Part shown: positions 19,652-42,300 of the stretch, piece by piece
How positions within the stretch are numbered: position 1 is the first letter of the stretch
How the letters are laid out: the number at the start of each line of letters is the position of its first letter
Assembly (NCBI GenBank): GCA_001662655.1
Contig: KV460207.1
Length of the DNA: 64,000 bases
DNA from: Pseudogymnoascus verrucosus
Taxonomy: Eukaryota
Strand: one strand, 5' to 3'
Notes under the pieces: model-generated
Seen by the model: the letters and a program-made list of their open reading frames with translations, nothing else
Databases searched by the model: none
What the model was told of the DNA's origin: nothing
Translations under genes and position numbers: made by a program

Positions 19652-20038
19652 GGTCTGACAACGGACTCGGAAATGAGGACGTCTTTAAGATGAGATAGTA
19701 AAAGTTGCTGGTTGCTCTATCTATCATGCCATAAACCGGGGGTCCTGTCATTGGGGTTTATATATTCCAACTCCTAGTCAAAGCTGTTTGCGGACTAATC
19801 TGTTTGCACCTTCTTGGCTTTTTCACGGCACAAGAGGCATTATCGTTGCTCTCTATACTCTCGATTGGTTCGGTTTCTTCAGCATACGAGACCCATCATT
19901 TAGTTCACAAGATTGTTCACAAGTGTATGGACTTCACGACATAGAAAATCTGGGGTCCCCAGACCCCAGATTTTCCAGGGGTACTCCAAACTTTGAAATA
20001 GCGATGATTCGCTCCCTTGCCTCCTACCATGTCTGCTA

Positions 20039-20469: not shown

Positions 20470-21183
20470 TTTTCGGCATGCGACGAGACTCTCGACCCTT
20501 GCGCCTGGACATTGTGCTGCAACCGGCACTGACACTAAGACTAAACTGCAACGAGTTGGACATACCATTAGTATATCGCATGCTGCTGTGATCCAAATGT
20601 GTGAAAATGATTTTCGGCCTTCCTAGCGTGGTTCAATATCCATTGTTCTCAACGATCATATTTACGAGCCATGTTATGGGACAATAACCGCCGACATGGA
20701 GGCTGCTCAGCGCCGCATGGAATTGATATTGCCTGGTTTGGAGACCCTATTTTCTTAGGAGGAGATTATTCGGCCGCAATGCGGAATCAACTTGGATCAC
20801 GCCTTCCAGAATTTACGCCCTCAGAAAGAGAATACCTTCGTCAGTCTACGTCTATCGATGTATTTTATAGGGTGAATCATTGTTCCACAAAATACACTCG
20901 TGGGCTAGCAGGCCCGTCAGCAGATGATGATTGGACACAAAACATTGAAGAATACCCTATTAATAGTCAGAGTAGGGAGACTGGGCCGCCGTTGGGTTTG
21001 GACTGGCTACGAGTAGCTCTAGAGGGTCTTCGGAAGCTCCTGGACTGGGTATCGAATCGCTATCACTTACCGATTATGATAACGGAGAACGGATGTCTAT
21101 GCCCTAGTGAGACAGATCTTGATACTGCAGTGCATGATACCTTTCGCCAAAGTTACTTCGGACTATGTCTAGATGCCACTTAG
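20470..21183 (+). pseudogene. Glycoside hydrolase family 1 beta-glucosidase fragment
   Basis: LAPGHC..VGHTISISHAA..S*RGSISIVLNDHIYEP..AAQRRME, then a frameshift, then WFGDPIFLGGDY..LGSRLPEFT..WLRV..GLRKLLDW..IMITENG (GH1 nucleophile motif). No N-terminal half is visible and the C-terminus is truncated. Confidence 0.88.
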
Positions 21184-21841: not shown

Positions 21842-23951
21842 CTAGGGCTTTACGACAATAATCATCGTCCTAATGATTTGCTTGGACCATTTGCTGGACA
21901 CTCGTGACATATTTCTGCATTCCCCAGGCCGGCACATGCTTCTCGTACATCTCGTCAATTTCCGCAGCATTGCGTTGGGAGCAGTCAGGAAGGTAGAATA
22001 CGAGTCCAGCAAACGCAAACAAACCGGTGCCGAAGAAGAGCCACGCGGACTTGTAGCCCTAGTTGGCGCCATTGACATCGACTATGAACTATTAGATTCT
22101 TTCCTCTGCGAAGCATACCATCGTCGTTGAAAGAACTTACGCATAAGCGGGACTGTAGTATTGAAAATGAGACCGATAACAACAGACATGGCCATTGCAA
22201 CACCAGCCGTTCTGGCACGAAGCCTCTGGGAAGCAACTTCACCAATGAACGCACCTCCCAGACTCCCGGCTGTAGTCAATATTAGTCATTTGCGCTACAT
22301 GCTATGGCTTATTGGAGAACTTACTAATGCTGTTGAAGAACGACCAGACACATGCAACAAAAATGAGGAAGTTCATTAAAGGCTGCATTTGATGAACGAG
22401 TCCAAGGATCCCGACGATGAACAATGTGATCATGCAAAAAGCAAGAGCGACCAAGGTCAGCCGTCGGCGGCCGATAATGTCAGAACCTAGTACTAGACAA
22501 ATAGCAGCAAGCAGTTGAATACAGCCTTCGACCCAGACAAGATAGTTAGCAACGTAGTTCTCATAGAAAACAAAGGCACTCTGAGGACAACTTACAAAGA
22601 ATGGTTGTAATGAGGAAAGCATTTTTGAAACCACTCTGCTTAAAGAAAAGGCTGGCATAGGTGTTAAGAAACGACAATCCAGAGAGCTGTTGGGCAAACG
22701 AGGGCATGGCGGCGCCAAAAGTGCGGCGAAGATTTGTTCCCTTGAAGCATTCGACATAAGAGTATAGTATTCGCTTCTAGCTTATTCTTGCGCCTCCTAT
22801 TTCTTCATCGATCGCGCGCTCATGCAGGATGGTATTCTTGATAATAGCATACTCGGCGTCGACATCATAGCCCTCTACATTGCCATTCACGCGACGAAGG
22901 GTCGCTTTGCCTTTCTCGTCTTGGCCTCTGGCAGCAAAGTATGCTGTAGAAGTATCAGTAACGAAGAGAAATGGCAATGGGCATCAAGCTGACTCACCAG
23001 CAGTCTCGGGAAGATAGATAAAGATGGGAAGCATGATACCCAAGAGCGCCCACTGTGTCAAAATCGGCAGTTTGTAGTCCATGGGGTTGTTCTTCTGAAC
23101 CAGCACGAGAACTAGGTTTGCGAGGAATTTCCCAATCGTATTCCAGAAACCGTATGTGACAGTCATAGCGCCTCTAATGTTGGCTGGTGCCCATTCCATG
23201 ATATAAACAGGGAGTGTTGCTTGAATGGCGCCGACACCAGCACCCGCAAGAATCTTGGCGCCAGTCCAATCGCTCCAGTCGCGAACGAGGGTTTCAATGA
23301 CGAGAGACTGTATGCACATAGTATTCCAGTTAGACATTGTTTTTTTCCCTTCACGGTTGACAGTAGAGGTGGTCACTTACGCCAGCCAGTATGACCCATA
23401 ACACGTACAAGGTCATCTTTCGGCCGATCCTGTCCGAGATGGGGTTTAGGAGGAGCTGGCCAAGCAGTTGACCGAGAGATTGCATAGCTCCCCACAGGGA
23501 AGTATACTGGGCCTTCAGCGCATATACGCCTTCACTGTTTGGAAATCCGAGTTTTTGAGTGAATCCCTGATTGGCGATGATGCCACCTGCAAACCCATTG
23601 TTAGCACATCTAAGAATGAGAAGGCGTATAAGTGAACTTGAGATGACCATTTAAGTTGATTTGGTATCCATCTGCTGCTGCTGCAATACACATGAGGTTG
23701 CAGATGAGTACGGCCTGCTAAAGTCAGCCATTATAATGTTGCAGCAAGCCAAGGGGATTTAGGGTGTCGATGATCTCCTCTACCTTTCGAAATTTCCAAG
23801 CCGTCTGCCATTGACTAAGTTTATCCTGCTCTGACTTCAGGACCAAAGTAGGCTTTTCGTTGGACATTTCGAGTGAGTTGTGGTCGTCCTCGATATGCTG
23901 GACCTCGTCTGTAACTGTGTGCTCTGTCTTGTTGTCCATTGGTGCATTCAT
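21842..23951 (-). pseudogene. MFS sugar porter (maltose/alpha-glucoside permease-like), multi-exon, with one in-frame stop
   Basis: Sugar-porter motifs SDRIGRK, YIMEWAPANIRG, YLPET, ECFKGTNLRRT and GEVASQRLRART. In-frame TAG at 22779-22777 in ..ARIS*KRILYSYVECF. Confidence 0.82.
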
Positions 23952-24413
23952 CCTGTCTGCCTTGTAGATCAGTGGTTGTGCGAGAATGGGATTCTCATAA
24001 CCCTTTTATTCCTTTTGGCGAGGGTCTATCGCAGGTAGATCGACCGAGTTGGAAGTGTCACCATTGACTTCTCCACGCGGGGTCCCGCTGATTGAATCCA
24101 GAACCTTTTGCAAGGAAATCTCTCAAAATACGATGATCTGGAGCTTGTGGTTTGCGTCAGCGTTTTGGCGTTTTGGGCACTCAGCTATTTTGGAAAAAGG
24201 ATGTCACATGACAAGACAAAAGGATTTAATCATATTGTTGCACCGAACTTAAAGGGTTGGTTGGGAATATAAGAACATGTACGTACCCCATACTCGGACC
24301 GGGTCAGTCAACCACTTTTATGGAATCTAAATTGGACTAGCAAGTCATCAATAATATTACTACTATAATCTCCCAAGACTCCGCGTCCTGCTGATTAATT
24401 ACCAAGGCTATTT

Positions 24414-26591
24414 CTATAAATGAACATTTTGCCAGTCCTCTGCCGCGGAAAGCCAACAGTTAGGTAGCAGCATAAAATCCTCTAAATGATCTGTTCCATT
24501 CGCATCAAACGCTGCGTTCCAGTCGAACGAGGGTATAAAAGTATTAAGTTGGTCTGTCAACGGCAGATGCACGGTTTCAGTAGCTGCGGTACACGAAACG
24601 GTCGGAAGCTCATCGTTGACATCGATTCCCTGCCGACTCACTCTATTCTGCGTGTCGCCTGTGCTGATGCTGGAGCTCGACAGAAGAAACTCAAAGATCC
24701 GCATGGCCCAATTCCATGGATCCCAGGATTCACGGGCCTCATTCAGCACAATCTGGCAATTGTCAAGAGACGCTTGCCCTACTTCTGCGACGGCCGGATC
24801 GGGTTGCCGTGTTTGTCTGTAAAGAATAATCCCTGCAAGGAAGAACGCGGGGAAAAGTTCGTGCGGTAGTGCAAATATGACGGACTTGGTCATGATTGTG
24901 ACTGCAGTTGATGCTATAGCAGATGCCGCGGATTCTGCAACTAGAGAAGACTGAATCTTGTCGAGTGCTGTTTGAGAGGTAGAATACACCGGTTGCTTGG
25001 GTTCCGCCATATGTAGGAGAATGAGGTGATAGTTATACAGGATCTTGAGAATGACGGCGAATGTGGGGAGTGGTCCGTTATGTTGAGACCAATTTACTGC
25101 TGGTTGGAGTTCTGATTGCCAATTCTTTAATTGACTTTGTAGATCATCCAACGTCGTTAGGCCACGTACTGGACCTATACGGTAATAGACAACATTTCGT
25201 AAGAGGAGAGAGAGTTTGGCCGTTTGAATTTGATAGTAGATTGAATGCTTGCAGCTACAATCAGAGTCTTGGTGGGAGCAGGCTGTGTCATCGTCGAAGT
25301 CAGCGCATGACAATGGTTCTGTGTCACACAGCGACATGTTAAGTCGGAAGGATCGGCCAAGCAGCGTACACAAATATGCGTCTCGAACTGAAAGAGTCCA
25401 CCACAAGCGTCGTAGTAAACCCTTGTCATTGGAGTGTGCGTTTGCAGACACAGCAGACCTGTGCATACCGAGAGACACCGCGATTGTCACTCCAAACCCA
25501 ATCCAGCTACACGGGTTCCAATAGTGCTTTAACTGAGGCCCAATGAAGCTGAGCATAATGGCTGCTTGGAGCAAAATGATTTTGTCTTTCTCATAGCCCA
25601 CGGTAAACAGAACCTTTGCCCTTTCATAGTACAAAGACCGCACTTCGGCTCTTGATTTGAACCCTAATTGGTGTATCGAGGAGGAATCACAAAAGGTTGC
25701 GCCGATAAAGTGAACTGCATGAAGCAATAGCCATGGGAGCTTTCGTTCGCGGTACGCTGTTTGGAACTCGGACTTTTTTACTATAGCGTAAAGTGGGTGG
25801 AATCTTTCAAGATATGAGCTCAGAAAGGTATCCGCTGTGTCGTTTTTGGGATATTCGAATGCGCCCTTTGCCTTCAGATACGTGATATCGTTTATATCCA
25901 AGTGGGGTGGATGGACATCTTGCATAATCACAGTCATGGATGCACTCTCGCCGATATGGTCGTGCACATCATACAGCCTTTGGTTCTTTCCACGTTGAAA
26001 CTCCTCGAGTGCGAATGTCAATGGTGACGGTTCGCCAGGGAGTACTATTCCGTGCCTTTCCAGCGTGCTTTCGTTCTGTTGTTTCAGGAATTCTTCGAAC
26101 ATCTCTGTCAATGAGCTAGCCTTCGAATTTGTGAGTATCCTCGGTGCGCGGCTAGAGGCTTCCTCTGCGCCGGGGCTCTCTGAAGGCGTAGAGTCGTTCA
26201 CCTGAATCGAATTTGGAGATACATGGGATGAGAAACCAGAAAAGTTCTCTGGTTGGGGATCGCCACGCAAACGGTTACGTGCCCTTATGGGTGTGTCCCT
26301 GGTACTAGTTATAGTTCCAAAATTCGCTTGGGGCATGTCCTGAGGGTCGGTTGGTGGGGTAGATCTACCCACTGCTGATGGGTGGTCAAAGGATTGATGA
26401 CGGTTTTGCGCATTCTTTCTATCATAGATTCCACGCTTGGAAACAATCAACGTGCAGTCATTGACATGATCCATTTGGCAGCGACTGCAAGGCACACCGA
26501 TCTGCGCCGCATCGCATTTAACCTTGCGCTGATTGCATCTGCTGCAGGCTTTAGACGCTCTGAGACGAGCTCTGTTGGTTCTATCCTGCAT
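24414..26591 (-). CDS. Zn(II)2Cys6 transcription factor, CTF1/FarA-like (725 aa, intact)
   Basis: ACSRCNQRKVKCDAAQIGVPCSRCQMDHVNDC cluster, followed by YLKAKGAFEYP, FHPLYAIV and LLRRLWWTLSVRD (Fungal_trans domain). Confidence 0.92.
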   Translation of the reverse strand: MQDRTNRARLRASKACSRCNQRKVKCDAAQIGVPCSRCQMDHVNDCTLIVSKRGIYDRKNAQNRHQSFDHPSAVGRSTPPTDPQDMPQANFGTITSTRDTPIRARNRLRGDPQPENFSGFSSHVSPNSIQVNDSTPSESPGAEEASSRAPRILTNSKASSLTEMFEEFLKQQNESTLERHGIVLPGEPSPLTFALEEFQRGKNQRLYDVHDHIGESASMTVIMQDVHPPHLDINDITYLKAKGAFEYPKNDTADTFLSSYLERFHPLYAIVKKSEFQTAYRERKLPWLLLHAVHFIGATFCDSSSIHQLGFKSRAEVRSLYYERAKVLFTVGYEKDKIILLQAAIMLSFIGPQLKHYWNPCSWIGFGVTIAVSLGMHRSAVSANAHSNDKGLLRRLWWTLSVRDAYLCTLLGRSFRLNMSLCDTEPLSCADFDDDTACSHQDSDCSCKHSIYYQIQTAKLSLLLRNVVYYRIGPVRGLTTLDDLQSQLKNWQSELQPAVNWSQHNGPLPTFAVILKILYNYHLILLHMAEPKQPVYSTSQTALDKIQSSLVAESAASAIASTAVTIMTKSVIFALPHELFPAFFLAGIILYRQTRQPDPAVAEVGQASLDNCQIVLNEARESWDPWNWAMRIFEFLLSSSSISTGDTQNRVSRQGIDVNDELPTVSCTAATETVHLPLTDQLNTFIPSFDWNAAFDANGTDHLEDFMLLPNCWLSAAEDWQNVHL

Positions 26592-28084
26592 ATTGCCCCG
26601 ATCAGTACTTACGAAGTCGTCCGTACTTGTTTTACCACAAGGTCTTGTAGTCCCGGTAGATCAACGAGGAGTTAGACTTTTGCGTTGTTGTTCCTTTCCA
26701 CTAGCCGGGTATCCCTTCATTAGCAACCTGCTCCCAATGAAATACGGTCAATCACAGGGCGTCAAGATATTGTTCATCGTAATACCTTTGTGAAATGCTA
26801 ACTTGGGCGTGTGGTAAGTGGAATCTCATGTGGAACGTCGTTGTTGGGAAGTGCTTGCAGCGGGGTAGGTGTCACGTGCAGGACGTAAAGGATTAATCAT
26901 ACGTTCAAGATAGGGCCATACCTGCTTTTGAGCTATAAAGTGGGAAGGCTAACCTCGGGAGGAGGGTCAGCGTTCAGTTTGAATAGAATGCGAAGAGTCT
27001 TACTGAACAACCTCGTGACTGTTACTGCCCTGTTAATGCCAAGGCCGGCTTTGCAGTACGTACTGTAGGCATTTTTTTGTTGAAATATTGCCTCGGGCCA
27101 AAATCCTTGGCTCGTATATAGTATAGCAACCCAAATCTGGGCGGATTGGTTACAATGTATTGCAACTGTTCTTTACGCACGCCTCCACCCTTCTTCACCA
27201 AGACATTTTGCCACTAACTCACAAAACCCATTTCGCAAGAGAGTTTTGTGCACGCTACTCAATCTAGTGGAGATAGGCTAGCAAATTCAAATGATAAAGT
27301 CTATATTAATTGTTTAATCATGCACGCTTGGTTCGTAGGGATGTAACTTACAGAAGCTAGCTTAGGATATTGAATAAAGAGCAGAACAGTTTTAAGGCGG
27401 GTTAGTGGCGACCTATCGAATATTCCTCCATCCCTCTGGTATAATTATCTATAATGTCTTCGACGAGGTCTATATACTTTTAACTATTTCTTCTAGTGGG
27501 TAACATGTCAATAATAGTCGCAATCTCAGAAACCTACCATCGGGCATTTGACTTTCGAATAGCGTGTGAATAACAACCACTTCTGAGCCCATTTTGAGAA
27601 AAACTGCGGTGTTATATTTCTCGAAACTTATAGTTATTGATGGCTACAGATCAGATTTTGAAAGGAATGGCACCAGATAGCCATATGGGCCACTTAGCTC
27701 GCGACATCATATAGCCGATGCGGGGGCTCACCTCCGTTTGCCAGGTCGTTGCCCGCGGCTACTTCAATTTTGGAGTAGCCGGGCCAGCTCGCGTGGTTGC
27801 TTCCATCAGGACATCACAACCAAACCAAAGTCTATCGGCATCATAGCCTCAGGCTACGTGATCGATCGGAAAATGACCGAAGGCAGCCCAATCGGTCTAA
27901 CAATTGTTATTCTAGCTCTCTCCATGGGGATGCGGGGAAACATAACTTACTTAAACCTCGACCTTAGCTGAATTTAATACAATTAACTGCACTGAGCTGA
28001 ACGTCCTTTTTACCAGTGAACACGCCACTCGCTTGTAGCAAGACTTTTAACAGGCACAATTTAAGATCAGTCGGAAATCAGAGG

Positions 28085-29745
28085 ATGGAGAAAGATTTCG
28101 ATGCAATTGTTGTTGGTGCAGGCTTCGGAGGGATTTATATGAGCAAGAAATTAATCGACCAAGGCCTATCAGTCAAAGTGATAGAGGCAGCCTCCGATGT
28201 TGGAGGAACTTGGTATTGGAACCGGTACCCTGGGGCTATGAGCGAGTACGATGAACCATTTCCTCCACAGTTTCCCCGTCGCTGACGAACAATAGCACCG
28301 GCTCCCACCTGTATCGCTATTCGTGGGATTTGGATGACCTCCGCCAATACCCATGGGAGCGTACCTATGTGCGTCAGGCGGAAGTATTGGCGTATCTACA
28401 GCACGTTGTTACGCGCCATCGACTTCGACAGTACATGGAGTTTGACACGGAAGTCATATCAGCTGACTGGGATGACAGCTCCGACCTGTGGGTGATTCAA
28501 ACCAGTACAGGTCAAAAGCTAGCAGCCAAATACCTCGTCACTGCAGTCGGCCTTCTTTCTAGACAAAACTTCCCGAACTACCCTGGCATCGGCCAATTTA
28601 AAGGCGAGCTCTACCATACTGGATCGTGGCCCAAAACGCATGATTTCAAAGGAAAGCGAGTTGGAGTTATTGGGAGTGGCTCAACTGGCGTGCAGGTCAT
28701 CACTGCATTGGCGGATGAAGTCAAGCACTTACTGTGCTTCCAAAGAACGCCTCAATACGTTGTGCCATCCGGAGACGTTGTCGCGACGCCGGAATATCGC
28801 AAAGAGATCAACGACTCGTACGAAGATATCTGGAAGCAAGCCAAGAACAGCCAATTCGCTTTTGGTTTCGAGGAGAGTAAAAACCCTACGATGAGTGTCA
28901 GCAGCGAAGAACGTGAGAAGATTTTTGAGGAGGCATGGCAGCAAGGCAATGGTTTCCGATTTATGTTTGGCACGTTCTGTGACATTTCATACGACGAAGA
29001 AGCGAATAAGGAAGCTGCAGACTTTATTAGAAGGAAAATACGTGCCACAGTCAGAGATCCGGTAAAGGCGAGCAAATTAATACCTACCGACTACTATGCA
29101 AGACGACCCCTATGCGACACAGGCTACTATCAGAAATTTAACCGGGACAATGTCGACATCGTGGACATTAAAGAAGTGCCTATAACTCATTTCACAGAGA
29201 AAGGGATTGTAACCAGTGATGGCACTGAGCATGAACTGGATGTGGTAATATGCGCAACAGGGTTTGAAGCCGTTGATGGCAACTACACCCGCATTCCAAT
29301 CAGGGGTCGCAAAGGGGTGACACTCAAGGAGCGGTGGGCAGGAGGTCCAAGCTCATATCTAGGTGTTTCGGTTCCCGACTACCCCAATCTCTTCATGATA
29401 TTAGGTCCGAACGGACCGTTCACCAATCTACCACCGACCATTGAAACACAGGTGGAATTTATCTCTGATCTGATTTCACATGCGAATAATCAAGCTCCAG
29501 CTCTCATTAACGGAACCAAAAGACCCGTGGTGGAGGCAACAGTTGAAGCGGAAGAGAAATGGACTGACCTTTGCGACAAAATGAGTGCAAATAGCCTCTT
29601 TCGGAAGGGTGATTCATGGATCTTTGGTGCCAATGTACCAGGTAAAAAACACTCGGTTCTTTTCTACTTTGGAGGTTTAGGAAACTACCGCATGGTTCTT
29701 GATGATGTGATCAGAGCAGGATACAAGGGCTTTTTGGGTTACTAG
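28085..29745 (+). CDS. Type I Baeyer-Villiger monooxygenase, cyclohexanone/cycloalkanone monooxygenase clade
   Basis: Motifs GAGFGG, GGTWYWNRYPG, the BVMO fingerprint FKGELYHTGSWP, GSGSTG and ATGF. CHMO-like stretches GFRFMF, RPLCDTGYY, GPNGPFTNLPP and SWIFGANVPGK. Intron 28246-28295. Confidence 0.95.
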
Positions 29746-30363
29746 ACTGCCATATGATTTCTTACAGCGCTCGAAGATTGCTGATTGCCCTACCCTGAAT
29801 TCTTCTGTGTAACAAGCGTATTTGTTAACATTTCTCTAAATGAACAATTCAATCAGTATTCTCTCCGAAAACATTTTATTTATGCTCAAATGCGCCTTGT
29901 AAGTCGTTGATTTCTCCAGGAGCGTCAATTAGACTTGGATGGTTTGCAGAGAGGTTTGAACATTAAAAACGATACGACTAGAACCATTGTACGTTCGCAA
30001 CCACCCATAGCTGCAAGCAGATAGTACACAAGCGCATCGAAACCTATTGATGTACCAATCAATTGATTCTTATATTAATCTGGAGGAGGTATTGAATTTG
30101 CTCTAATTAGTCTGCCTAGCGCATAGTTTGGCTATCAATAAGATAAATTGTAGGATTTATAATCTCTCAGGTGTCGGACGATTTAATTTATGGGCGCAAA
30201 ATTAATGGCATGTTGCGAACGCCTATAACCCACATCACTAACTTAAAGTTAAACTCTTCACTGCATTTCGTATAGCCTTGCAGGCTTCTATGATAGAGAA
30301 GACCTATAATGTACGCTAAGCTATAATAATGGTTCCTTTCCCGGCTACAACAGCGAAATCTTC

Positions 30364-32351
30364 TTAAATCCGGCCCCTCTCCAAAAACTTGTTTGGAATC
30401 TCGACGTGTTTACTTCTAAGGTATTCGGCTAAATTCTTCCCTAGTACATCATATGTTGAGCTTGAAGATACGCCACGATCCAGATGGTCCTTCAGGAGAA
30501 AATGTACCGCTGGAAAAGACATACTTTAGCAAATTTTGCATGTATGAATTGGAGAATAACTTGGCCTTACCTTGAATATGTGGCAACTCAAATCGATCGA
30601 TGGGTTTACCCTCATAATCATTTTCAAGGAGATTTTTGATTTTTTCTAATGTTAAGATTGATCGAAGCCAGTCCCATTCGTCAGTATTTCGGACGAAGAA
30701 CCCTACATTAGCATCGGAACCTTTGTCGCCGGAACGTGAATGAACAACATATCCGAGAGGAGCAAGAGTTGTAGGGCCCCAGCTTCCAAATGGCAGAGGA
30801 TTCTCGGTTTCGTAGCTGGGCTGCTGATAGAGGAAGTCTTCAGTGTCTGTCGGCGGCGGGATTGCAACGGATTTATTGGCGAATGGCATATGGGCCACAT
30901 GTCTGATGGCGCTTTGCGGGAGTAATGCAACCCAGTACTCATAATATGGCTTTGGTAATGCTTGTCGGTTATCAACAGCGAAAGTCGCGCCTGGATAACT
31001 TTCCATGATCACATCGGTACATGGACGTAAAAAGTTCTCTATAGAGAGCGCGGATTCGTCTTTTGATTGTGCAAAGATGCGGAAGTCAACAGTCGCTGAA
31101 TCTTGACTGGAAGGGTTGGAAGGGCAGCGTCCATTGACTCGGAATTTGAGGGTGTGATAGCTAGATTCGTTCAGGTGATGGCGAATCTGCCGTTCTAGGA
31201 GTGCCGCCTTTTCTTCAATGTCAAGGCCGCAGCCGAAGTAATGTACTTCAGCCTGGAAGCCACCTTTGGCAGTGATTCCAACTTTGGTGGTTGGTGGGGC
31301 TTTCTTAAAACCAACGTTGGTAACACGGCTATAATTATCACCTGTATCAGTACTATACATCCTTGGAAGCATATTTTAGAGACCTACACCCTGTTTTCAC
31401 CCGCATGCTCGATCTTGATATTGCTCAGCTCGGCAACAACATCAGAGTTGTAGTAGAACGGGCCTTGGATCTCATAGAGTAGTTGCGCTTTGCAGGTGTC
31501 GACGCTTACGATGCCATCGCCTTTCAACTGTTTTGTAACGATGAATGTGCCATCGGCGTCAATTTCAACTACCGGGAATGAAAGGTTGAGAGATTTCCCT
31601 GGAAGACTTTTAAATCCCGTGAAGTTGCCTCCTGTAACGTAAGTACTACATTCAATGAAATGACCTGCAACGAAAGCGTGTGCAAGCTGGCTCAGATCTT
31701 CCCTGCCCCACTGATAAGTGTAAGCAGCACAAGCAATGGTGGGACAAGCATCTGCAACTCGACCACAAAGCACGATATCAGCTCCCTCTTTGAAAGCCTC
31801 GACAATACCCCATGAGCCAAGATAGCACTGTGCATAGATAGGCTCAAAGGCCCAGTCTGAAATGCCTTTGCCTATTCATATAGTTTAGTCTAGCGTTCGA
31901 TATCCAAAAACTTAGCTTACATACCTGTCGTCAAGCTTTGAAAGGAATCGCCAGATTCTAAGCCCTGTTGTACGAGGTCGGATACCTCATCTCCCTCAAC
32001 CCAGGCAATTTTGAGTTTAAGGCCTTTCTCTTGAACAATCTTATATAGAGTATCATAGAGTTTCTTTGTATCACTGGCGCCAGCATTAACAGCCACTTTA
32101 ATTCCCCTTCTCTCTAGATCCGGAAGTGCTGGCGTTATGGACTCCAAGAAGCACTCTTCGAATTCAGCGGATGATGCCGCTCCGCTGACTTTTGCGGCCC
32201 CTCTTGTTGTCATATTATATTCAGACATCCAATCGCCGACAATGAATGACACAACTTCTTCTTTTGCAAGAGCAGCAAAGCCATGCCTGCGGTCCGTCAC
32301 AGAGCCCGAGGCAGATGCAATTCGCAGTATCTTACTAGGAGCGGATGCCAT
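30364..32351 (-). CDS. AtuA/DUF1446 (acyclic terpene utilisation) family protein, four exons
   Basis: LRIASASGSVTDR, GDWMSEYNM, NAGASD, AQCYLG, GADIVLCGRVADA, AGHFIEC, QLLYEIQG and HSRSGDKGSDANVG. Three GT-AG introns restore the frame, ending ..KFLERGRI*. Confidence 0.92.
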
Positions 32352-33414
32352 GTTTTCGTCTTTGAAACGTCCCTCTTCTTTTGAGCAAGGCAAAATAGGA
32401 AAACTACAATACCAGTTACGGCAAGAGAATTCAGAAATGATGGCTCGGAGGTGTGCAGACAATGCTATTTTTATATCTGCCAAACCTATCAGAATTAGCT
32501 AGGAATTTCGGCCAAAGTGGTAAAGCCGTCGGCAGTGAATCCACTATTCTACTCTTCCAATACCCCGCTCTTCCACTCTTCCATGAATTATGGCTATTCG
32601 TTGGAGGTTGTGGGCTCCAGGGAATTCGTCACCCGGATAGAACTTGGATAGAATTTAGATGATAACGTACGTCGGTCCTTCCGATTATCGTGTGATGTGC
32701 CCTAGGTTTGATGTCCCGCGGGATTTGGTCCGAATGGTGGGTCCTTGACTTCAACCCCACATTCTCCAAGTGAGGGGAAACGGATCTCCAACTTCTTCGT
32801 TGTCCCGGCTTGGCTCCTAGCTCACACACCTCGGACAGCCGACTGGCAAATCAGCAACTTCGGAGTTTATGCTACTTGGCATATTACGCTCTAAGGATCA
32901 TCAAGTTTAATCCCATATACAGTTGGGTATTTCCTCACACAATCAGACAGGAGTTGCTCTCACAGTGCATTATACAGCCGCATCCCCGTCGCGGCCACTA
33001 AGCTACCAAAGATCTATCGCATTCCGCAATTTTATTATTTGGAGTCGTCTGCACTGTCGGATTGGAACAATGCCTCCCGAATCTGAACACCGACATCGAA
33101 CCTCAGCCAATATGCAGCCCCACAGTCAACATGTAAGCCGGGCAAGCCACATATAGCCGAGCAAGGAGCATTAGGGGTTAAGGACGGCTATATAGAAAGA
33201 ACATCGAGGTTGCCCCACACCCTACCAACCCCACAACGCCTGCATCAAGGGACGAGTTCCCAGCAACATGTGAATCAATCACTCTCACACATACATTGTA
33301 AAGATTCGGGAAGTTTAGTGATCTATTATTGATTCCCTCTCCGAGTGTGCAAAATCTGTTTGCTTGCTTCGTCGTTAATATTCACGCCTCCACTCTGTCG
33401 TCTCAATTTCTACC

Positions 33415-34415
33415 ATGGCATCCCAAACCGACCTTGCCGCCTTACTAGTGCATGCGTCTGTTCCGGCATTTAAGTGCCCAGTTGGAACGAAAATGCACAT
33501 TTTGGACCTTGGAACGTTGCAAGCTGACGAGTCATGGTGTGTTTATGAGAGTTAACAAGTCAGGACAATTTACTGAAACAGAAAACCAAGGTTGCTGCGA
33601 GGCGCTAATGCTGCCACACTAACTAATAAGAACCCGCAGAACAAATGTCGCGATTTAATCCTTCTCTCAGCGCTTATTGAGTACCCTGGTGTAGGACTCA
33701 TTCTCTTCGAAACCGGGTGTGCAGAGGATATCGATGTGGTTCGTGAGAAGCTATATTCTGCGGTTCAACTCGCTTCCCATAACTTATTGCTAACACTGGG
33801 AGATAGGAATGGGGTCCTCCGTTGACTGATGTGTTTCCTCGCACAGAGTATTCAGAAAAACAGAAACTACCAGCCGCCATTAAAGCTACGGGAAACGATA
33901 TCAAGGATGTAAAGGCAATCATTATGGGTCATCTCCACCTAGACCATGCTGGTGGTCTAGAACACTTTGTGGGCACTGATGTTCCCATTTACGTCCACGA
34001 AGAAGAGTTCAAGCATGCTTGCTGGGCTGTCGCCACTGGCGCTGATTTAGGTGTATACCTTGGACATTATATGCTCCTAGAGAAGTTAAACTGGAGCACC
34101 TTCACTGAATCGCAACTTGATCTCTTCCAAGGAATCACACTGCACCATGCTCCAGGGCATACCCCGGGGTTGTGCATTATGCAAGTCAACCTGGAACAGG
34201 ATGGTACGTTTATCTGGACCACCGACCAGTTCCACATTGTAGAGAACTACGAACTAGGACATCCTCATGGAGGACTAGCTAGGGACCACAACGCATGGTA
34301 TCGGAGCCTCAACATGATACGCAGGTTGCAGAGGTTGTACAACGCCAAGTTGATTTTTGGGCACGACAAGGTTGTCGCAATGAAGTACATCAAGGAAAAG
34401 GAATTCTACATATAG
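33415..34415 (+). CDS. Metallo-beta-lactamase-fold lactonase/lactamase (AHL-lactonase AiiA/AttM-like)
   Basis: HLHLDH di-metal motif, PGHTPG, TTDQFH and IFGHD. ATG at 33415; introns at 33537-33590 and about 33739-33806. Confidence 0.9.
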
Positions 34416-34628
34416 CAGTGTCGAGTAACGCCGCTCAATGGGCCCAGTCCCAGAATGTCTGCCTAAAAAAAAATATACAATAGGAACCACTTAAACCCAA
34501 AGACTCACCTGAAGCCTAAATGACCTCTACAAACCCCTTTACGTATAGATTTAGAGTGTTTATGTAGTGCTTCATAGAATTCCTAGTACGATTATTTTGC
34601 AACGTTTTCTGGACTTATCGATCTTATG

Positions 34629-35102
34629 TAACGTACATGTATAGCGAACCGGCCAAAATATCACGACCACCTCACAAGGATTGAGATAAATCTACCACAA
34701 CACTAGAAATTAATTGAAACTACTCAGAGTACTCTTTCTTAGACGTGTCTACTATAATCTAACAAGTGCGCGCATTATGTCCTGTCTTACTACACTTTCT
34801 ATAGCGTCGTGCACGCGTTTCTTCCCTTAGCTTCCAACTACTACTCACCCTAATTTCCTACTCTACCTACTGTATAACATCCCTCTCGTCCTATAGCTCC
34901 TGCGCTCCTTCTTAACTAATTATTTCTCCTTGCTATAGCTGTGTTTTTTTAGCTCTCCTACGCTTGCTTAGCACTTTATTTGCCTATTATAGGTATTAGT
35001 TCTCTGCTTTTAGTAACGTACATGTATAGCAAGCAGCGCATCTAAGCGAGCGGCGCACTTTATTATACTCTACCTATGCAATAGTACATAATTATATACC
35101 TA
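34629..35102 (-). mobile_element. RIP-degraded 3' ends of two older pogo/Fot1-type elements
   Basis: TA+ACGTACATGTATAGC termini at 34629 and 35014. The minus strand reads LKAEN*YL**ANKVLSKRRRAKKTQL*QG..RRYRKCSKTGHNARTC*, a decayed transposase C-terminus with zinc knuckle. Confidence 0.8.
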
Positions 35103-35104
35103 TA

Positions 35105-36943
35105 ACGTATTTCACAAGCGAGTGGCCCACACAAGCGAGTGGCCCACGAAAACACCAAAACGCGTCAACTTAACAGAAGTCAATATGACACAACCAACAC
35201 AAACCCAATCCTCTAATCAGGAGGGTAGAATACTATTGGCTATTAGTGCAATTAAACAAGGCCAGTTTCGTAGTGTTCGAGTAGCTGCAGCATCGTACGA
35301 TATACCTCGAACGACACTACGTCGACGAATTGAAGGAATGACTTCTAGACGCGACTCTACCCCTAGTTCGCAGAATTTGACTCCGTACGAAGAGTCAGCT
35401 CTCGTTCAATATATCCTCGACCTAGATTCACGTGGATTTCCGCCCCGGCCGCAAGCTGTACAAGAAATGGCTGACCTTCTACTCTCCGAACGAGGTGAGA
35501 GCCCTGTTGGGAAGAACTGGACTAGCAACTTCATTAAGCGTCGTACGGAAATCAAAGCAAAGTTTAGTCGGAAGTACGATTATAAACGAGCAAAATGTGA
35601 AGATCCAAAGATAATTGAAGGGTGGTTCTCCCTCGTACGAAACACAGTTGCAAAATACGGAATCTTAGAGCAGGATATCTATAACTTTGATGAAGCAGGT
35701 TTCGCAATGGGAGTTATTGCTACTGCAAAGGTAGTCACAAGCTTAGAAGCAAAGAGCCGTCCGAAGACTATACAGCCAGGGAATAGAGAGTGGGTGTCAA
35801 TTATCCAAGGTGTCAATTCGTACGGATGGGCACTCCCGCCGTTCATTATTTTTAAGGCGCAGAATCACCTCTCTACTTGGTACGAGGACTCAGAATTACC
35901 AGACGATTGGGTGATTACACTAAGTGAGAATGGGTGGACTTCAAATTCAATTGGGTACGAGTGGATTCAACACTTCGATCGATATACAAGCACTCGTACG
36001 ATCGGAACCTATCGCCTTCTTATTCTCGACGGACATGAGAGCCACCTCTCAGCTCAATTTCAGCACTACTGCACAGAACAGAAGATAATCACCCTCTGTA
36101 TGCTACCACACTCCTCACACATTCTTCAGCCGCTTGACGTGAGCTGCTTTGCTCCACTAAAGCTTTCGTACGGACGTCAGATTGAAACCTTCGTACGGAA
36201 CAGGCTCAACCATATTACGAAGCTTGAGTTTCTCTCTGCATTTAAAGAAGCATTCAAAGCTACATTTACAGAACAGAACATTAAGAGCGGATTCCGAGCT
36301 ACAGGGCTAGTTCCGTACGAGCCACAGAGTGTTCTCTCTTACTTAAATCTACGCTTAAGGACTCCAACCCCTCCGATAGTTAGGAGTGACAATTGGACTT
36401 CAAAGACTCCCCAAACTATAAGGGAGCTTAACTTTCAAACAGAGCACATTAAGAACCGCATCGTACGACATCAGAACAGCTCTCCTAGCTCAATTAATGA
36501 TGCTATTAGCTGCCTTGTTAAAGGGGCAGAAATAATGATGCATTCTGCTGTTCTACTAAAGGCAGAAGTTAAGGCTCTACAAGTAGCAAATGAACAGAAA
36601 AAGAGGAAGGAAAGGAAGCGTAAGAGACGTATAATGCAAGGGGGAAGCCTCTCCGTACGAGATGCAGAGGATATACTTCAGAGTGCTGAGGTTGATGCTC
36701 AAGTCCGAACGGAGGTGGCAAGTGAGAGTAGTCGGCAGGTGGGCTCTAAAGGCCGACAGAAGCGCTGTGGCCGATGTGAGAAAATAGGACATAATACCCG
36801 TACGTGCGAGAGGCGCCAGGAATCAATTACGATCGAATAATGGTTATTATGTAGGGTGGTAGTGTAGTAGTAGGTAGTAATAGTCAATTTTGGTGTTTTT
36901 GTGGGCCACTCGCTTGTGTGGGCCACTCGCTTGTGAAATACGT
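35105..36943 (+). mobile_element. Intact pogo/Fot1-like Tc1-mariner DNA transposon (1839 bp)
   Basis: 56-bp TIRs at 35105-35160 and 36888-36943 with one mismatch, each holding a 17-bp tandem CACAAGCGAGTGGCCCA. TA target duplication at 35103-35104 and 36944-36945. Confidence 0.97.
35185..36840 (+). CDS. pogo-family transposase (HTH_psq, CENP-B HTH, DDE_1, CCHC knuckle)
   Basis: Uninterrupted ORF with IPRTTLRRR, YNFDEAGF, LILDGHESH, QPLDVSCF and CGRCEKIGHNTRTC. Confidence 0.96.
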   Translation: MTQPTQTQSSNQEGRILLAISAIKQGQFRSVRVAAASYDIPRTTLRRRIEGMTSRRDSTPSSQNLTPYEESALVQYILDLDSRGFPPRPQAVQEMADLLLSERGESPVGKNWTSNFIKRRTEIKAKFSRKYDYKRAKCEDPKIIEGWFSLVRNTVAKYGILEQDIYNFDEAGFAMGVIATAKVVTSLEAKSRPKTIQPGNREWVSIIQGVNSYGWALPPFIIFKAQNHLSTWYEDSELPDDWVITLSENGWTSNSIGYEWIQHFDRYTSTRTIGTYRLLILDGHESHLSAQFQHYCTEQKIITLCMLPHSSHILQPLDVSCFAPLKLSYGRQIETFVRNRLNHITKLEFLSAFKEAFKATFTEQNIKSGFRATGLVPYEPQSVLSYLNLRLRTPTPPIVRSDNWTSKTPQTIRELNFQTEHIKNRIVRHQNSSPSSINDAISCLVKGAEIMMHSAVLLKAEVKALQVANEQKKRKERKRKRRIMQGGSLSVRDAEDILQSAEVDAQVRTEVASESSRQVGSKGRQKRCGRCEKIGHNTRTCERRQESITIE

Positions 36944-36945
36944 TA

Positions 36946-37080
36946 ATAAAAATCAATTAAAGCTCTTTAGGATCCTCTTTAGGAGAGGTCTCTACTATAA
37001 TCTAACATGTCTGTACATTATGCTTAGTCCTACTACACTTACTATAGCAACGTGTATAGGTTTCTTCCCTTAGCTTATAG
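36946..37080 (-). mobile_element. Continuation of the RIP-degraded pogo relic interrupted by the intact element
   Basis: Homologous to 34710-34832 (tctactataatctaaca..cattatg..tactacact..tttcttcccttagct). Confidence 0.75.
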
Positions 37081-37227
37081 AATTAGGGTAGAATACAAGA
37101 GGCTGATAGCGACAGCAATAATGCTAACGATGAAGCACCTGAATAGGGGCTCGCAGAAAGGGGGCTCGTGGAAAGGGATTTACTACTATCAAAAGCTTCA
37201 TTTTATATACTCTATTCAGCCTCATGC

Positions 37228-37307
37228 ATCCGGATATATACCCTACTCTACCCGTTAGATCGTCGCTGGGTATATACCCTACCCAGATATGTATCCGTCA
37301 AACACTG
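37228..37307. mobile_element. Solitary hAT-like transposon end
   Basis: Reads CAGTGTTTGACGGATAC on the minus strand from 37307, with a subterminal repeat TATATACCCTAC present twice. No partner end seen. Confidence 0.45.
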
Positions 37308-37623
37308 CGACTGGGGCCAACAGGAATAGGGGCTACACCCGAACAGGGGCTTGGCACCACCAGGGCGGCAGTGCCAATTTTACACCTTTTCCGAGTGGCC
37401 TAGGCCATTTACCAATGCATACATTAATAGGTGGACTAGGCTATTGGCGAATAGCGTAGACCATTCATGAATGTGATTCATTGGCGACTGGACCAGAACA
37501 TATAATTGACATTGTTTCATGTTGTAATTAACTATAGTCGTGAATATTTAAATATTCATGATTAACTCGATTTCTTGTGCTAAACCTTGATATGAAGGGT
37601 TTAGATGTGATTACAAAACCAAT

Positions 37624-39390
37624 TTACAAAGTATATCGAAATAGGGGACTATAGTCACCCATATCTAGCAGCTCTTGCTCTGAATATTTGGCTCTGATAT
37701 CGTCGATACTCATGCTGTCACGTTTCTTGTTGATGCGGTTTAAAGTAACTTTGAGGATAACTGCCGAAGCCAGCCCAGTGAGGATAATTGCCAGAGAAAA
37801 GCCGTAACCGGTCCAGTAATGCGGGGCTTCCTTCGCTAGGTAAATGTTGGAGCCGATGGCTCCACCCAAATTTCCAATGGATATCTGAATAGCCATGCCA
37901 ACTGATCGTTTCCATGTTCCTGCAAGATTGTTTGCTGGTGAATTTGGTTAGTGTAGGAGCACCAATTTGGGATTGTTGGGCATTGCTTACCATTCCATGA
38001 GATAACGCCACAGATTGTTGGGTATAGTCCCCCGGCTACGACAAAAAGCATGCCATATGTCGCACCAGGCCACCCAGGATGTGGGAGAGCCAAAAGGCCA
38101 ATATAACCAATTGCTGCAATAATGAATGGGTATATGATGAAGTTTGACCGGTTTTTATACCGATCAGACAGGAAAGCAGCAGAAACGGTGGCAATGAGAG
38201 CGAAAGCGTAGACTGGAATCGTTAGAAGTTGTGCATTTGATGCGCTGTAGCCCAATTCCTTAATAACTGATGGAAGAGTGTATATGAATCTATAAAATTG
38301 TCAGAATGTTTCCGAAATACAAATAAAAAGCAAAAGAACTATCGCACCCATAAGTACATATTGAATTTCCCCAGTAGATCAGGACTGAAAGATATATTTT
38401 CCAGTCCGTCAACGCCGCTATTACGTATCTCATCTGGAATGTCTCCGCAGTTTGCAAACGGCCGCTGCCTCCGCTATCATTTTCGAGCCTCTGAGATAGG
38501 AATGTTTTTTCTTCCATGGACAAAAACTTGGCACTGGCAGGTCCATTTGGTAGAAGGAAAGGGCATGCCATGCCAACAATCACAGTGCACAGGCCCTCAA
38601 GGATGAGAATCCTGTAAAACGTTAGCATTTAGTTATGGTTAGCAAATTCAAACTTACCATCGCCAACCTGCGAGGTTGCCGACGCCGTCCATCTTCTGTA
38701 TTGCGAAGGCCAAGAGACCAGAGAAAGCCCCTGCCATAGAACCAGCAGAGAAGAAGATGGCAAGCCTTCCTTGCATCTCATATCTGCGGTACCAGCAGGT
38801 GAGAAGGTAAGTCGCGGCAGGGAAAAAGCCAGCCTGGCAACTTGTCAGTTACGCTTGAGGTAGAAGGTATCTATAAATACCTCAGTCACACCAAGAAAGA
38901 ACCTTGCAGCAAGCAGCCCACTATAATTTTGAACCAGACCCATCAAAGTCATTGTCGTTCCCCAAGCGAGGATAAGTATTGTAAGCCAAAGATTTGGTCG
39001 GAGCATTTTGAGCACAATATTGCTAGGAACCTCAAAGGCAGCATAAGGAAAAAAGAATATTGTTAAGCACATATTCCACTGAGCATTGCTCAGCCCCACA
39101 TCTGTTTGCATGCCTAGAGTTCGTGCATTTCCAACTGGTGTCATGTTAGCTAGAGAAGTTTAGAGCCTGTAGCTTGCATGGAGAGGCGAACCATTGCCTC
39201 TATCAAGAAAGGACAAGAGATACAACAAAGTCAAAACTGGAAGGAGCCGCTTGTCCACTTTTCTCAAGATCAATTTGGTTTCAGCTTCGTCGTGAACAAT
39301 GGGAGGCAGGACATCGCTGCCTCCTTTTTCCTTGTCAACTTGGCCGCATTCGAGACTGTCAACTGCCGTAGATTTTCTTTCATCGTCCAT
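37624..39390 (-). CDS. MFS anion:cation symporter (Dal5/Tna1 family), six exons
   Basis: LSFLDRGNVGNA, FEVPSN, RFFLGVTEAGFFP, AFSGLLAFAI, LAGWRWILILEG, AQLLTIP, GNLGG and D.SPLFRYTL. The frame is intact after splicing. Confidence 0.93.
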
Positions 39391-42300
39391 GTTAGCTGTG
39401 ATAAAGGAAACCGGTAGAGGAGGTGGTTCCAGCGCATGAAATTCTTCTTGCAGAATATCCTTTTGTAATTTTTAAAGGCACTGATTGTCTTTTTATATTC
39501 TGATTTCAGACCAGCTGTAGGTCTCTTCAAGTTAGCCAGTAGCATCCCTAGGCCGAGTACGAACCCCGCATTCCCAGTTCCGTGGGAGAAACCTAGCGAT
39601 CATTATTGGCCGCGGCTACATTACCCCAAAGTGCTACATAATGCGGGGAAACAGGGGAAAGGCGGAGAGAAAAGTGGGTCAAATTACCAACGATATAATT
39701 AAGTTACCGACAGTCCAATCACCACTGGAAAGCAGGAGATCAGCACATGGCTGCATCCTACCCTGTGATTACCACAGAGCCGGAGCTACCAGAGGAGTGG
39801 TCACGGCAGGATTAGAATCCTGTGCCGATGTAAGTTACTTGAACAAACCTCTAGGATGAGGGTGGTAGTCATGATCAATATTCAGCAGACATCTTGCTTG
39901 GTATCGCTCTTAGTTGAGAAGATAATTCCACAAAAACTAGAAGTAACTTAACGTATAGCCACATAAGCGAAGCTACGGAGCTCGCTTTATGGTGCACTTT
40001 CATAGTGCCACATTGAATTGTCAATAATGATCGCATCCCCGCTCTCCCGAAGAATTTGGGGTTGTGGAGAAAATCGGTTGTATGAGCATTAAGCTTGCCC
40101 CACCTTCTAGGTGATGAAAGCAGGCATGTTCCGAACTTTGCGGGTATAAACGGCTATATGGAATGTCGAGGTTTCCCAGCATTCTGTCAACCCCACAATG
40201 TGGACATTGCCATGAACCGCTGGTAAGTTAGTGTTGAACATTGCTTTCAGAGATTAGCAGTCGTGGCTTCCGTTCGAGTTACGGAGCACAATATTATGAA
40301 CTGCCCTGCGCATCACGTCCAACGAAGCTGCGAGGGGGGCAACGAAGTACATTTCTACCAGTGGTACATTGTGTCGCAATCGAAAAGTGAATTCAAGGCC
40401 ACAACTATGAAACTATTTGTAGATTGTGTCTTGCGATGTCGCATCTACTGACAACCCGACATTTTGTTTAGTGCGACGGGCAAGATCCCTCATGCTCCAA
40501 CTGCATGCTTTACAAATAAGAGCCTAAATATAGCAGGCTAAGGGCCGCGCTTGGGAATATTCCACGCTATGCCTATTAGCACGATTGAGAGCATCAATCC
40601 ACTGAATTACAAGCTTGTGTATGGCAGAGCGGACGGGATGCCCAATTGTCTTGAGTCTATGGTCGTATGTAATTGTTATGCATGTGTCGAGGACTAAATA
40701 CTGCCATGCTTGCTGTGCTGTGTTGTTATCGGATGGGAGGATGATGGGGGTTGGCGTGAGAGGAAGTGGACTGCGCTTTGTTTCGATGTGGAAAGGGAGG
40801 GTGGGAGAGGAGGAGGGAGATGCAGTGGGTTGAAGGGAGGAAAAGGAGGGTAGGGAGGGGTTATATATTAAACCTGCCCCAGCAGAACGCTAATAGAGAA
40901 GCGAACAAGACACTAGGATAGGTACATTTGCAGGTTAGTTAGGCGCGTGGTGCTATGTTAGACTAGCGGGGGTAAGTGCGGTTGTAGATTAACCTATGTT
41001 TAGCTATAGAAGGAGGGAAGGGGAGTGCTATCATAGTGTTGTTGTCGTTAATACTACTCCTGTAGTCACTAGGCTGTTGTCGTTGTGATATACTCCTATC
41101 ACCACGCTACTGTCATCATAGTATACTCCTCTCACCACTACCATCTACATACCATCGAGCGAGCTTGCAGTTTCTATAGAACCAAGTGGCTCTAACGAGG
41201 AGATTAAGGACTGTCACCGGGTTCAGCCTGTTTTTAGAGTTAGACATCATATTTAATTTTGTCTCTCCGACTCAGCGACGGACTGTGTGGGTTGTATTTA
41301 TAGAATCCTGATACGTGAAGTTTAGCGGGGGGGAAAGAGATGGTTTTGTCAGCACCCGGTAGCTCGCTGATGAGTGGGTGAAGGGCGGTATGTTTGGTTG
41401 GGTTGGATGGGGGTTATATAAAACTCAAGCCGCGCAGAGAATTGACGTAGCAGCGCATCGATGCTGGAACATACAATCCCAAGTGGTTCTGTGGTGACTT
41501 CGTGAGGTGCTGTGTTGGACAGAGGGTGATGGGGGATGTGGTGGATAGGGGTTTGTTCGGGTTCAGGGGCTGAAGACGCAGTCACTACTGCTATTGTCTT
41601 GAATGGCATCGAACGTGCTCGCTGTTTCTATGAAACGAAGGGGTTGCTAGGAATAGCTTGAGGACCGTTCCCGGGTCCAGTCTTTTTTTTTGGCGCATGT
41701 TAGGTGGCTTTGACTGGGCTCCTGGCTATGTGAGGGTGATATATATACCATTTTTCCATGCATAGTTGGGGCTGCTATGTTTATCTCTCATCCCTTACCG
41801 AAAGAGGTCGGCGACGGGGAAGAAAGGGAAGAAACATCTCCTCCTCCTTCCCCTTCTTCTCCCTCCAGTAGGCACAAGGGAGAGGTTTAGTTTACAGTAG
41901 CTCATCTGCGTAGCCTCGTCGCAATAAGGAACCAGACACCCGAAGTCCGCCCAGCTCGTCTTGTATGTACGCCTTGGCAAACCGAGATGGCGGTGCTAGA
42001 TCGAACCCATTCTTTTATTTTATTTTAAAAAAAGGCAGACGGTGACGACAATAATTACAAATTCCAGCTGAACTCACCCCCAGCCTCGTCGCAGCCGGTC
42101 TCGCACTTGGAATGCAGAGGACAACAGCCCTGACCTCGGTCTTCCCGATAACCATCCCCGTACCAGGATAAAACCAACACGAACCCACCCAAAGGGGTCC
42201 AACACATCTTTTAAAACATCGACTTGCATAACCCAACCCAGCGCATCGCCGCGCCACCCCAACCACGCCATAAGTCAACGAATCATATGTTCATATTCTA

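Follow-up and report, generated by a model that had tools for sequence, protein, structure and literature searches.

A candidate ring-ketone cluster in Pseudogymnoascus verrucosus

A 64,000-nt stretch of contig KV460207.1 from the soil fungus Pseudogymnoascus verrucosus (assembly GCA_001662655.1), referred to here as the window, contains between positions 24,414 and 39,390 genes for a Zn2Cys6 transcription factor (TF), a Baeyer-Villiger monooxygenase (BVMO) of type I, an AtuA/DUF1446 protein, a metallo-beta-lactamase (MBL)-fold lactonase and a major facilitator superfamily (MFS) carrier. An earlier note on this DNA had proposed that the five act in one pathway, which raises the question of whether the genes belong together and what an AtuA protein would do beside a ring-opening enzyme. 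Comparison with homologous loci indicates that the grouping of the BVMO, MBL and TF genes is beyond chance and recurs elsewhere; the place of AtuA is less certain. The best supported conclusion is that TF, BVMO and MBL form a real recurring module, which would lead from a ring ketone through a lactone to a hydroxy-acid, with substrate and activity read from family membership and gene order. The locus as a whole may be an accessory alicyclic-ketone catabolic cluster, the fungal equivalent of the cyclohexanone/cyclopentanone route of bacteria, with AtuA in the place of an alcohol dehydrogenase (ADH) and an aldehyde dehydrogenase (ALDH), and on the sequence evidence we give this wider reading an even chance.

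Gene models in the window were derived from stop-to-stop open reading frames (ORFs) and Pfam searches, with exons rebuilt by homology and splice consensus. All five genes yielded intact models, as the earlier note had supposed, and the rebuilt coordinates reproduce the two divergent pairs that it had described (TF/BVMO and AtuA/MBL), followed by the carrier. The TF gene (24414..26591, minus strand) is a single exon encoding 725 amino acids (aa) with Zn_clus and Fungal_trans domains, and an identical sequence was found in the protein collection, where it clusters with VE04_05430. The region between the TF and BVMO genes (26592..28084) is presumed from gene geometry to be a shared promoter. An 11,045-nt contig of run X4 spans 24302-35010 at ~99% identity, so that TF, BVMO, AtuA and MBL are collinear in the X4 strain too. 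From runs X3 and X5, contigs covered the MFS side (37069-40500) but not 24067-34839, a gap that does not show the four-gene block to be missing there.

Recurrence of the BVMO-lactonase module in other fungi

A scan of metagenome contigs with an MBL exon returned 39 loci. Eighteen of them were 3.1 kb or shorter and had little or no neighbouring sequence, and the 21 informative loci were screened by tblastn and by Pfam searches of their ORFs. A BVMO of the cyclohexanone monooxygenase (CHMO) clade was found within 5.5 kb of the MBL gene in five of the 21 (L001, L002, L003, L019 and L036, with L002 and L003 near-identical). L001 has BVMO (plus strand), zinc ADH (minus), ALDH (minus) and MBL (plus), the last being 94% identical to that of the window. 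L002/L003 carry ALDH (minus), MBL (plus, 92%), MFS (minus), BVMO (minus, 81%) and TF (plus, 61%), and the divergent TF/BVMO layout of the window is repeated in L002. The BVMO (minus) and MBL (plus) genes of L019 are adjoining and divergent, and L036 contains ALDH, a sugar transporter, MBL (plus) and BVMO (plus, 55%).

A different combination was found in L027/L028. There, a type I BVMO from a different clade (fingerprint FQGDIIHTARWDP; the L027 enzyme is a divergent member of the type) occurs with AtuA (minus, 58-64%), a short-chain dehydrogenase/reductase (SDR; minus), MBL (plus), MFS (minus), zinc ADH (minus), ALDH (plus) and, at 25% identity, a weak match of TF type. Positions 1-20669 of L027 hold the fullest version of the cluster among the loci. 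The ADH and ALDH proteins of L001, L002/L003 and L027 are mutually orthologous (71% and 67-77% identity, respectively). In named fungi, locus tags place BVMO N7523_003430 and MBL N7523_003427 of Penicillium sp. IBT 18751x three genes apart, and BVMO N7456_007265 and MBL N7456_007269 of P. angulare four genes apart. The five-gene pathway cluster of the earlier note therefore stands in part: the BVMO, the lactonase and the Zn2Cys6 regulator recur, whereas the five-gene composition is not conserved and the usual partners are zinc ADH and ALDH.

Bacterial cyclohexanone and cyclopentanone clusters are of the type named chnBCDE or cpn, and their lactone hydrolase is an alpha/beta hydrolase. The fungal loci resemble them in uniting a BVMO, a lactone hydrolase, a hydroxy-acid dehydrogenase, an oxo-acid dehydrogenase and a dedicated regulator, the ADH and ALDH steps being found in the sister loci L001, L002/L003 and L027. 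Unlike the bacterial clusters, they have a fungal host, introns, an MBL-fold lactone hydrolase and a Zn2Cys6 regulator, and the window has AtuA instead of ADH and ALDH. No ADH or ALDH match was found in the window at E <= 1e-3, whereas linked ADH and ALDH are present in the three sister loci just named. No fungal catabolic cluster of BVMO, MBL lactonase, ADH and ALDH was described in the parts of the literature covered by our search.

Identity of the BVMO and the lactonase

The BVMO gene (28085..29745, plus strand) has two exons (28085-28245 and 28296-29745) encoding 536 aa, and the spliced product equals P0371 (VE01_00844 of P. verrucosus, also V499_04651) letter for letter. Type I BVMOs are recognised by the fingerprint FxGxxxHxxxW[P/D] and two GxGxxG motifs. 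The translation carries the fingerprint FKGELYHTGSWP and the two Rossmann motifs GAGFGG and GSGSTG. Among solved structures, CHMO (3gwd) is matched at E 5.9e-180, followed by PAMO (~1e-108), STMO (1e-103) and OTEMO (5e-85). The enzyme, placed in the CHMO/cycloalkanone monooxygenase (CAMO) clade, is by these sequence features a CHMO-clade type I BVMO; the earlier assignment is confirmed, with cyclohexanone monooxygenases as the best solved relatives.

The BVMO of Ilyonectria robusta is 61% identical to that of the window. A much closer protein, W97_00263 of Coniosporium apollinis, is 88-90% identical and falls in the same 90% cluster, and the next named fungi reach only ~68%. C. apollinis is a rock-inhabiting fungus of another class, and the match points to a transfer across distantly related fungi or to contamination.

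The lactonase gene (33415..34415, plus strand) comprises three exons (33415-33536, 33591-33738 and 33807-34415) separated by canonical GT..AG introns and encodes 292 aa. The protein aligns end to end with fungal homologues, is 81% identical to P0246 and, in that alignment, retains the complete metal-binding motifs HLHLDH, HHAPGH, TTDQ and FGHD; the motif of MBL-like lactonases (MLL) has been defined as HxHxDH~H~D~H (PMC13413597). Its best matches in the Protein Data Bank (PDB) are the lactonases AaL (6cgy) and GcL. The top NCBIfam models for the close homologue P0246 were AhlS, AiiA, 4-pyridoxolactonase and AttM, all under their equivalog cut-offs (for AhlS, 121.5 bits where the cut-off is 475), so the homologue belongs to none of these named lactonase equivalogs. 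PDB matches, NCBIfam ranks and motifs together bear out the lactonase call of the earlier note as a grouping with MBL-fold lactonases. Because the NCBIfam matches are far under the cut-offs, we place MBL in the MBL-like lactonase group and in no named subfamily.

The closest named relatives of the lactonase are Talaromyces and Penicillium proteins (80-87% identity). No Pseudogymnoascus protein occurs among its 120 best matches, which indicates that the gene, though intact-looking, is probably unannotated in public genomes.

Both enzyme classes have characterised fungal members. The cycloalkanone monooxygenase CAMO was characterised from Cylindrocarpon radicicola (PMC4498894, PMC5225235), and AsPLa, an MBL-like lactonase of Aspergillus pseudonomiae, hydrolyses acyl-homoserine lactones (AHLs) and patulin (PMC13413597). 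The likeness to the window genes is one of enzyme class, and the portions of these papers available to us describe neither protein within a gene cluster.

AtuA in place of the dehydrogenase cassette

The AtuA gene (30364..32351, minus strand) has four exons (32351-31925, 31871-31388, 31328-30571 and 30509-30364) and encodes 604 aa with a fused ferredoxin-like C-terminal domain. The spliced product is an exact match to P0005 (VE01_00845 of P. verrucosus), and the gene end near 30449 that the earlier note implied turned out to be intron read-through. The protein matches both family profiles over their full length (PF07287, 541 bits over profile positions 1-437; PF23544, 65 bits). The AtuA/DUF1446 family is widespread in Pezizomycotina, with 654 proteins at E <= 0.001.

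Blastn of L001 against the window returned exactly two segments. L001 181-447 corresponds to window 29523-29790, at the 3' end of the BVMO gene, and L001 5064-6318 corresponds to window 33237-34487, which covers MBL and 178 bp upstream of it. Between these conserved flanks, L001 has ADH and ALDH (4.6 kb) and the window has AtuA (3.45 kb). Since the flanks match and the window holds no ADH or ALDH remnant at E <= 1e-3, AtuA occupies the slot and the divergent promoter that ALDH has in L001 and L002/L003. Within the AtuA/MBL intergenic region (32352..33414), only the MBL-proximal 178 bp (33237-33414) are common to L001 by blastn.

The association is also visible in annotated genomes. Pseudogymnoascus sp. 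24MN13 has the annotated order TF-BVMO-AtuA (VE04_05430-32), and BVMO and AtuA are neighbours in P. verrucosus (VE01_00844/45) and in VKM F-103 (V499_04651/52). Among the 21 informative metagenome loci, AtuA lies near MBL in two, L027 and L028, which represent one lineage. In three other fungi, AtuA has a neighbour within a merged gene model: a carboxylesterase in P0045, a zinc ADH in P0076 and an MFS protein in P0118. The Paramyrothecium ADH of P0076 was considered as a candidate for the cluster ADH and was rejected, as it matched neither the ADH of L001 nor that of L027 at more than 70 bits.

Structural relatives of AtuA

Searching the PDB by sequence with the middle exon of AtuA and with P0005 gave no significant match, and the citramalate lyase subunit CmlA was found only by profile and fold searches. 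An AF2 model of AtuA built on 64 homologues (pLDDT 89) had a single strong structural match, chain 9evf_A (Foldseek E 2e-21; VIA Z 30.0, root-mean-square deviation 4.0 A, 413 of 456 residues aligned), from an entry for a complex of citramalate lyase with ADP and pyruvate. The PDB names this chain of 9erq/9evf an AtuA family protein, or citramalate lyase subunit A (cmlA). CmlAB of Raoultella planticola cleaves a tertiary hydroxy-acid to a keto-acid and acetate without coenzyme A (CoA). CmlA and fungal AtuA share the Pfam family, the fold and, in their alignment, the GR..D and LYE motifs. They differ in that the bacterial lyase consists of two subunits (A and B) and fungal AtuA is a single chain of 604 aa with the ferredoxin-like domain fused to it; the closest bacterial relatives of AtuA are likewise fused, and the substrate of AtuA is certainly different. 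On the strength of the structural model, AtuA is most likely a CmlA-type carbon-carbon lyase.

The family name points elsewhere, to the acyclic-terpene (citronellol/geraniol) utilisation pathway of Pseudomonas, with which the earlier note had linked the gene. AtuA of the Pseudomonas atuABCDEFGH set is expected to catalyse an acetate-releasing carbon-carbon cleavage at a tertiary carbinol (PMC13689101), and ThnQ and ThnS are given as AtuA-like lyases in the table of a review (PMC12016498). These proteins belong to the same family as fungal AtuA, but they act in CoA-ester pathways (anaerobic naphthalene degradation in the case of ThnQ and ThnS) beside carboxylases, hydratases and CoA-transferases, and such genes are missing from the window: no Pfam family of a geranyl-CoA carboxylase, an acyl-CoA dehydrogenase or a hydratase was detected among the ORFs of the 64 kb. 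The only fungal AtuA studied, VdAtuA3 of Verticillium, is reported to be mitochondrial, and its deletion caused no growth defect on citronellol (PMC13399572). The link to acyclic-terpene utilisation is accordingly weak, and a lyase role fits better given the match of the model to CmlA (Z 30). BVMOs also occur in biosynthetic clusters, so that a secondary-metabolite tailoring cluster could be imagined as well. The absence of polyketide synthase, nonribosomal peptide synthetase and terpene synthase genes, and of any other atu-type gene, from the ORFs of the window argues against both the biosynthetic and the Pseudomonas-type terpene readings, and we consider a cluster of either kind very improbable.

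Passages on DUF1446 in the literature, as far as we saw them, reported no function, and no enzymatic function for any fungal AtuA was found in the literature searched, where the single study of a fungal member describes a mitochondrial phenotype only.

Proposed route and competing explanations

According to the proposed route, the Zn2Cys6 factor would control the divergently transcribed BVMO, which would insert oxygen beside the ring carbonyl to give a lactone, and the MBL-fold lactonase would open the lactone, yielding a hydroxy-acid. Where the cluster has its common form (L001, L002/L003 and L027), zinc ADH and ALDH would then oxidise this acid to a dicarboxylate. The AtuA-family gene replaces the ADH and ALDH cassette in P. 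verrucosus and its close relatives, where it shares a divergent promoter region with the lactonase, and its product may cut the hydroxy-acid downstream of ring opening and release a small acid. The likeliest substrate for such a step would be one with a tertiary or branched carbinol, which dehydrogenases could not oxidise. Of all the links in the scheme, the weakest is that of the MFS carrier to the cluster; the protein may take a substrate up or carry the acid out. Which substrates fungal BVMOs act on physiologically is largely unknown (PMC4498894), and the cassette swap beside the lactonase would offer a testable handle on the natural role of fungal CHMO-type enzymes and on AtuA-family chemistry.

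Whether AtuA takes part in this route is the main point of dispute. It may instead be a passenger: the real unit would then be TF, BVMO and lactonase, a truncated module without ADH and ALDH whose product is oxidised by unlinked dehydrogenases, and AtuA, perhaps together with the MFS gene, would have arrived by rearrangement and serve an unrelated acid catabolism. This explanation is a serious rival because of the many cases in which AtuA is unlinked, and several observations weigh against a functional place for AtuA. The gene is missing from the available flanks of L001, L002/L003, L019 and L036. AtuA and MBL homologues lie on separate contigs in Bisporella sp. PMI_857, Xylogone sp. PMI_703, Ilyonectria sp. 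MPI-CAGE-AT-0026, Dactylonectria estremocensis and Aspergillus pseudoustus; AtuA and BVMO homologues do so in A. nanangensis and Halenospora varia, and are 387 gene numbers apart in Exophiala bonariae. At least eight named fungi thus show no linkage of AtuA with an MBL or BVMO homologue, and some of them may have paralogues rather than orthologues. The three Pseudogymnoascus genomes with linked genes are near-identical and count as one observation, and in L027 the MBL is only 51% identical to that of the window and the BVMO is of another clade. Sequence similarity between fungal AtuA and CmlA is marginal (profile E 0.029; 16% identity).

Bacterial genomes add to these points. When prokaryote genomes were scanned with the AtuA alignment, 80 loci (L040-L119) emerged, mostly from Actinomycetota; their AtuA homologues are full-length, fused and 35-39% identical, and the neighbouring ORFs were clustered. 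A BVMO was nearby in 1/80 and an MBL in 0/80 of them; ADH (4/80) and ALDH (7/80) were also rare. The conserved neighbour was a family III CoA-transferase, directly downstream in at least 32 of the 80; an AMP-binding ligase occurred in 19/80, and SDR, acyl-CoA dehydrogenase, enoyl-CoA hydratase and P450 genes in 8-9/80 each. The carrier is a further difficulty. The earlier note had counted it among the cluster genes, but the window MFS is only ~27% identical to the MFS proteins of L002 and L027 and is not their orthologue, so that a conserved carrier is not upheld. Higher identity (51-54%) was seen with the MFS portion of P0118, the merged AtuA and MFS model of Verticillium longisporum, where the two genes adjoin, which hints at a separate AtuA-MFS pair. 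Finally, the region contains a mobile element and has a G+C content below that of the left flank.

Other evidence opposes a passenger role. L027/L028 independently unites AtuA with BVMO, SDR, MBL, MFS, ADH and ALDH, the replacement between the conserved flanks is precise, AtuA stands head-to-head with the lactonase, and all genes are intact, leaving a block without visible decay. The view of AtuA as a cluster step thus gains from L027/L028, where AtuA again accompanies a type I BVMO, MBL, MFS and a weakly TF-like sequence, and from its defined slot at the lactonase promoter, and loses from the unlinked cases. We favour a functional link because the only solved member of the family is a carbon-carbon lyase, because of the recurrence in L027 and because of the precise slot replacement, and we regard the passenger explanation as somewhat unlikely.

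A different role for the two core enzymes is suggested by the lactonase itself, whose nearest named families are quorum-quenching lactonases. In a unit for lactone interference or detoxification, MBL would hydrolyse signalling or toxic lactones, such as AHLs or patulin-type mycotoxins, and the BVMO would turn toxic ketones into hydrolysable lactones. The activity of AsPLa on AHLs and patulin would agree with this, as would the high conservation of MBL (74-94% identity) and its occurrence with neither BVMO nor AtuA in the available flanks of L004, L007, L008, L009, L012/L013/L024, L029, L033 and L037. However, AsPLa may not be an orthologue of the window MBL, the NCBIfam lactonase matches are far under the equivalog cut-offs, and in the sister clusters the BVMO-linked MBL is accompanied by ADH, ALDH, MFS and TF, which points to full oxidation to a dicarboxylate. 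We therefore judge a detoxification unit improbable.

Returning to the alicyclic-ketone cluster with AtuA as a working step, a more general idea can be put forward tentatively, and we think it unlikely. Fungal Baeyer-Villiger ring-opening clusters might possess two interchangeable back ends: ADH and ALDH for the primary hydroxy-acids formed from plain cycloalkanones, and AtuA, as a CoA-independent carbon-carbon lyase, for hydroxy-acids with a tertiary or branched carbinol, which could not be dehydrogenated, such as those formed from alpha-substituted or terpenoid ring ketones. If true, the exchange between L001 and the window would be a natural experiment in non-orthologous displacement and would provide the first enzymatic role for fungal DUF1446.

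The carrier, the transposon and the surrounding sequence

The MFS gene (37624..39390, minus strand) comprises six exons encoding 500 aa; its five GT..AG introns measure 46-58 nt and have branch sites of the CTAAC/CTGAC type. The earlier note had assigned the carrier to the Dal5 type (anion:cation symporters); on this point, Pfam MFS_1 matches on its single exons were sub-threshold, and a Protein Atlas look-up with exon 2 returned generic MFS clusters only.

An intact transposon of 1,843 bp, absent from the earlier note, separates MBL from MFS. This element (35103..36945, plus strand) is bounded by 58-nt terminal inverted repeats (35103-35160 and 36888-36945) and has an open transposase frame (ORF 35092-36840) with the Pfam domains DDE_1, HTH_Tnp_Tc5 and HTH_psq. 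Contigs of two related strains, X4 and X7, skip 35098-36945, and reads lie 50-80 times as deep over the element as over its flanks; it is therefore a high-copy, polymorphic insertion. The DDE_1 and HTH domains, the inverted ends and the presence/absence polymorphism assign it to the pogo/Tc5 type of DDE transposons. Among the differences between its copies, C>T and G>A dominate, with ~100-120 changes each where the other types number 4-71; the pattern resembles that of repeat-induced point mutation (RIP).

A search for a shared promoter motif by k-mers and by CGG-Nx-CCG patterns in the intergenic regions of the window, L001, L002 and L019 turned up no site that was convincingly common to them; it yielded one 9-mer in four of eight regions and several unrelated CGGAA... 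half-sites.

The earlier note had described many neighbouring genes as pseudogenes. One GH1 remnant agrees with this, corresponding to profile positions 244-383 of 453, with no further GH1 piece found; the sugar-transporter gene, which lies in five pieces, may equally well consist of exons. The remnant and the transporter pieces are located at 20611-21180 and 22085-23650, respectively, the latter on the minus strand and explained by decay or by introns. Upstream of the cluster, a 654-aa open frame without a Pfam family (17723-19684) and a second Zn2Cys6 DNA-binding domain (15412-16050) were found. The G+C content from ~20 to 50 kb is 0.44-0.49 (0.52 in one 2-kb bin), and that of the left flank reaches 0.61.

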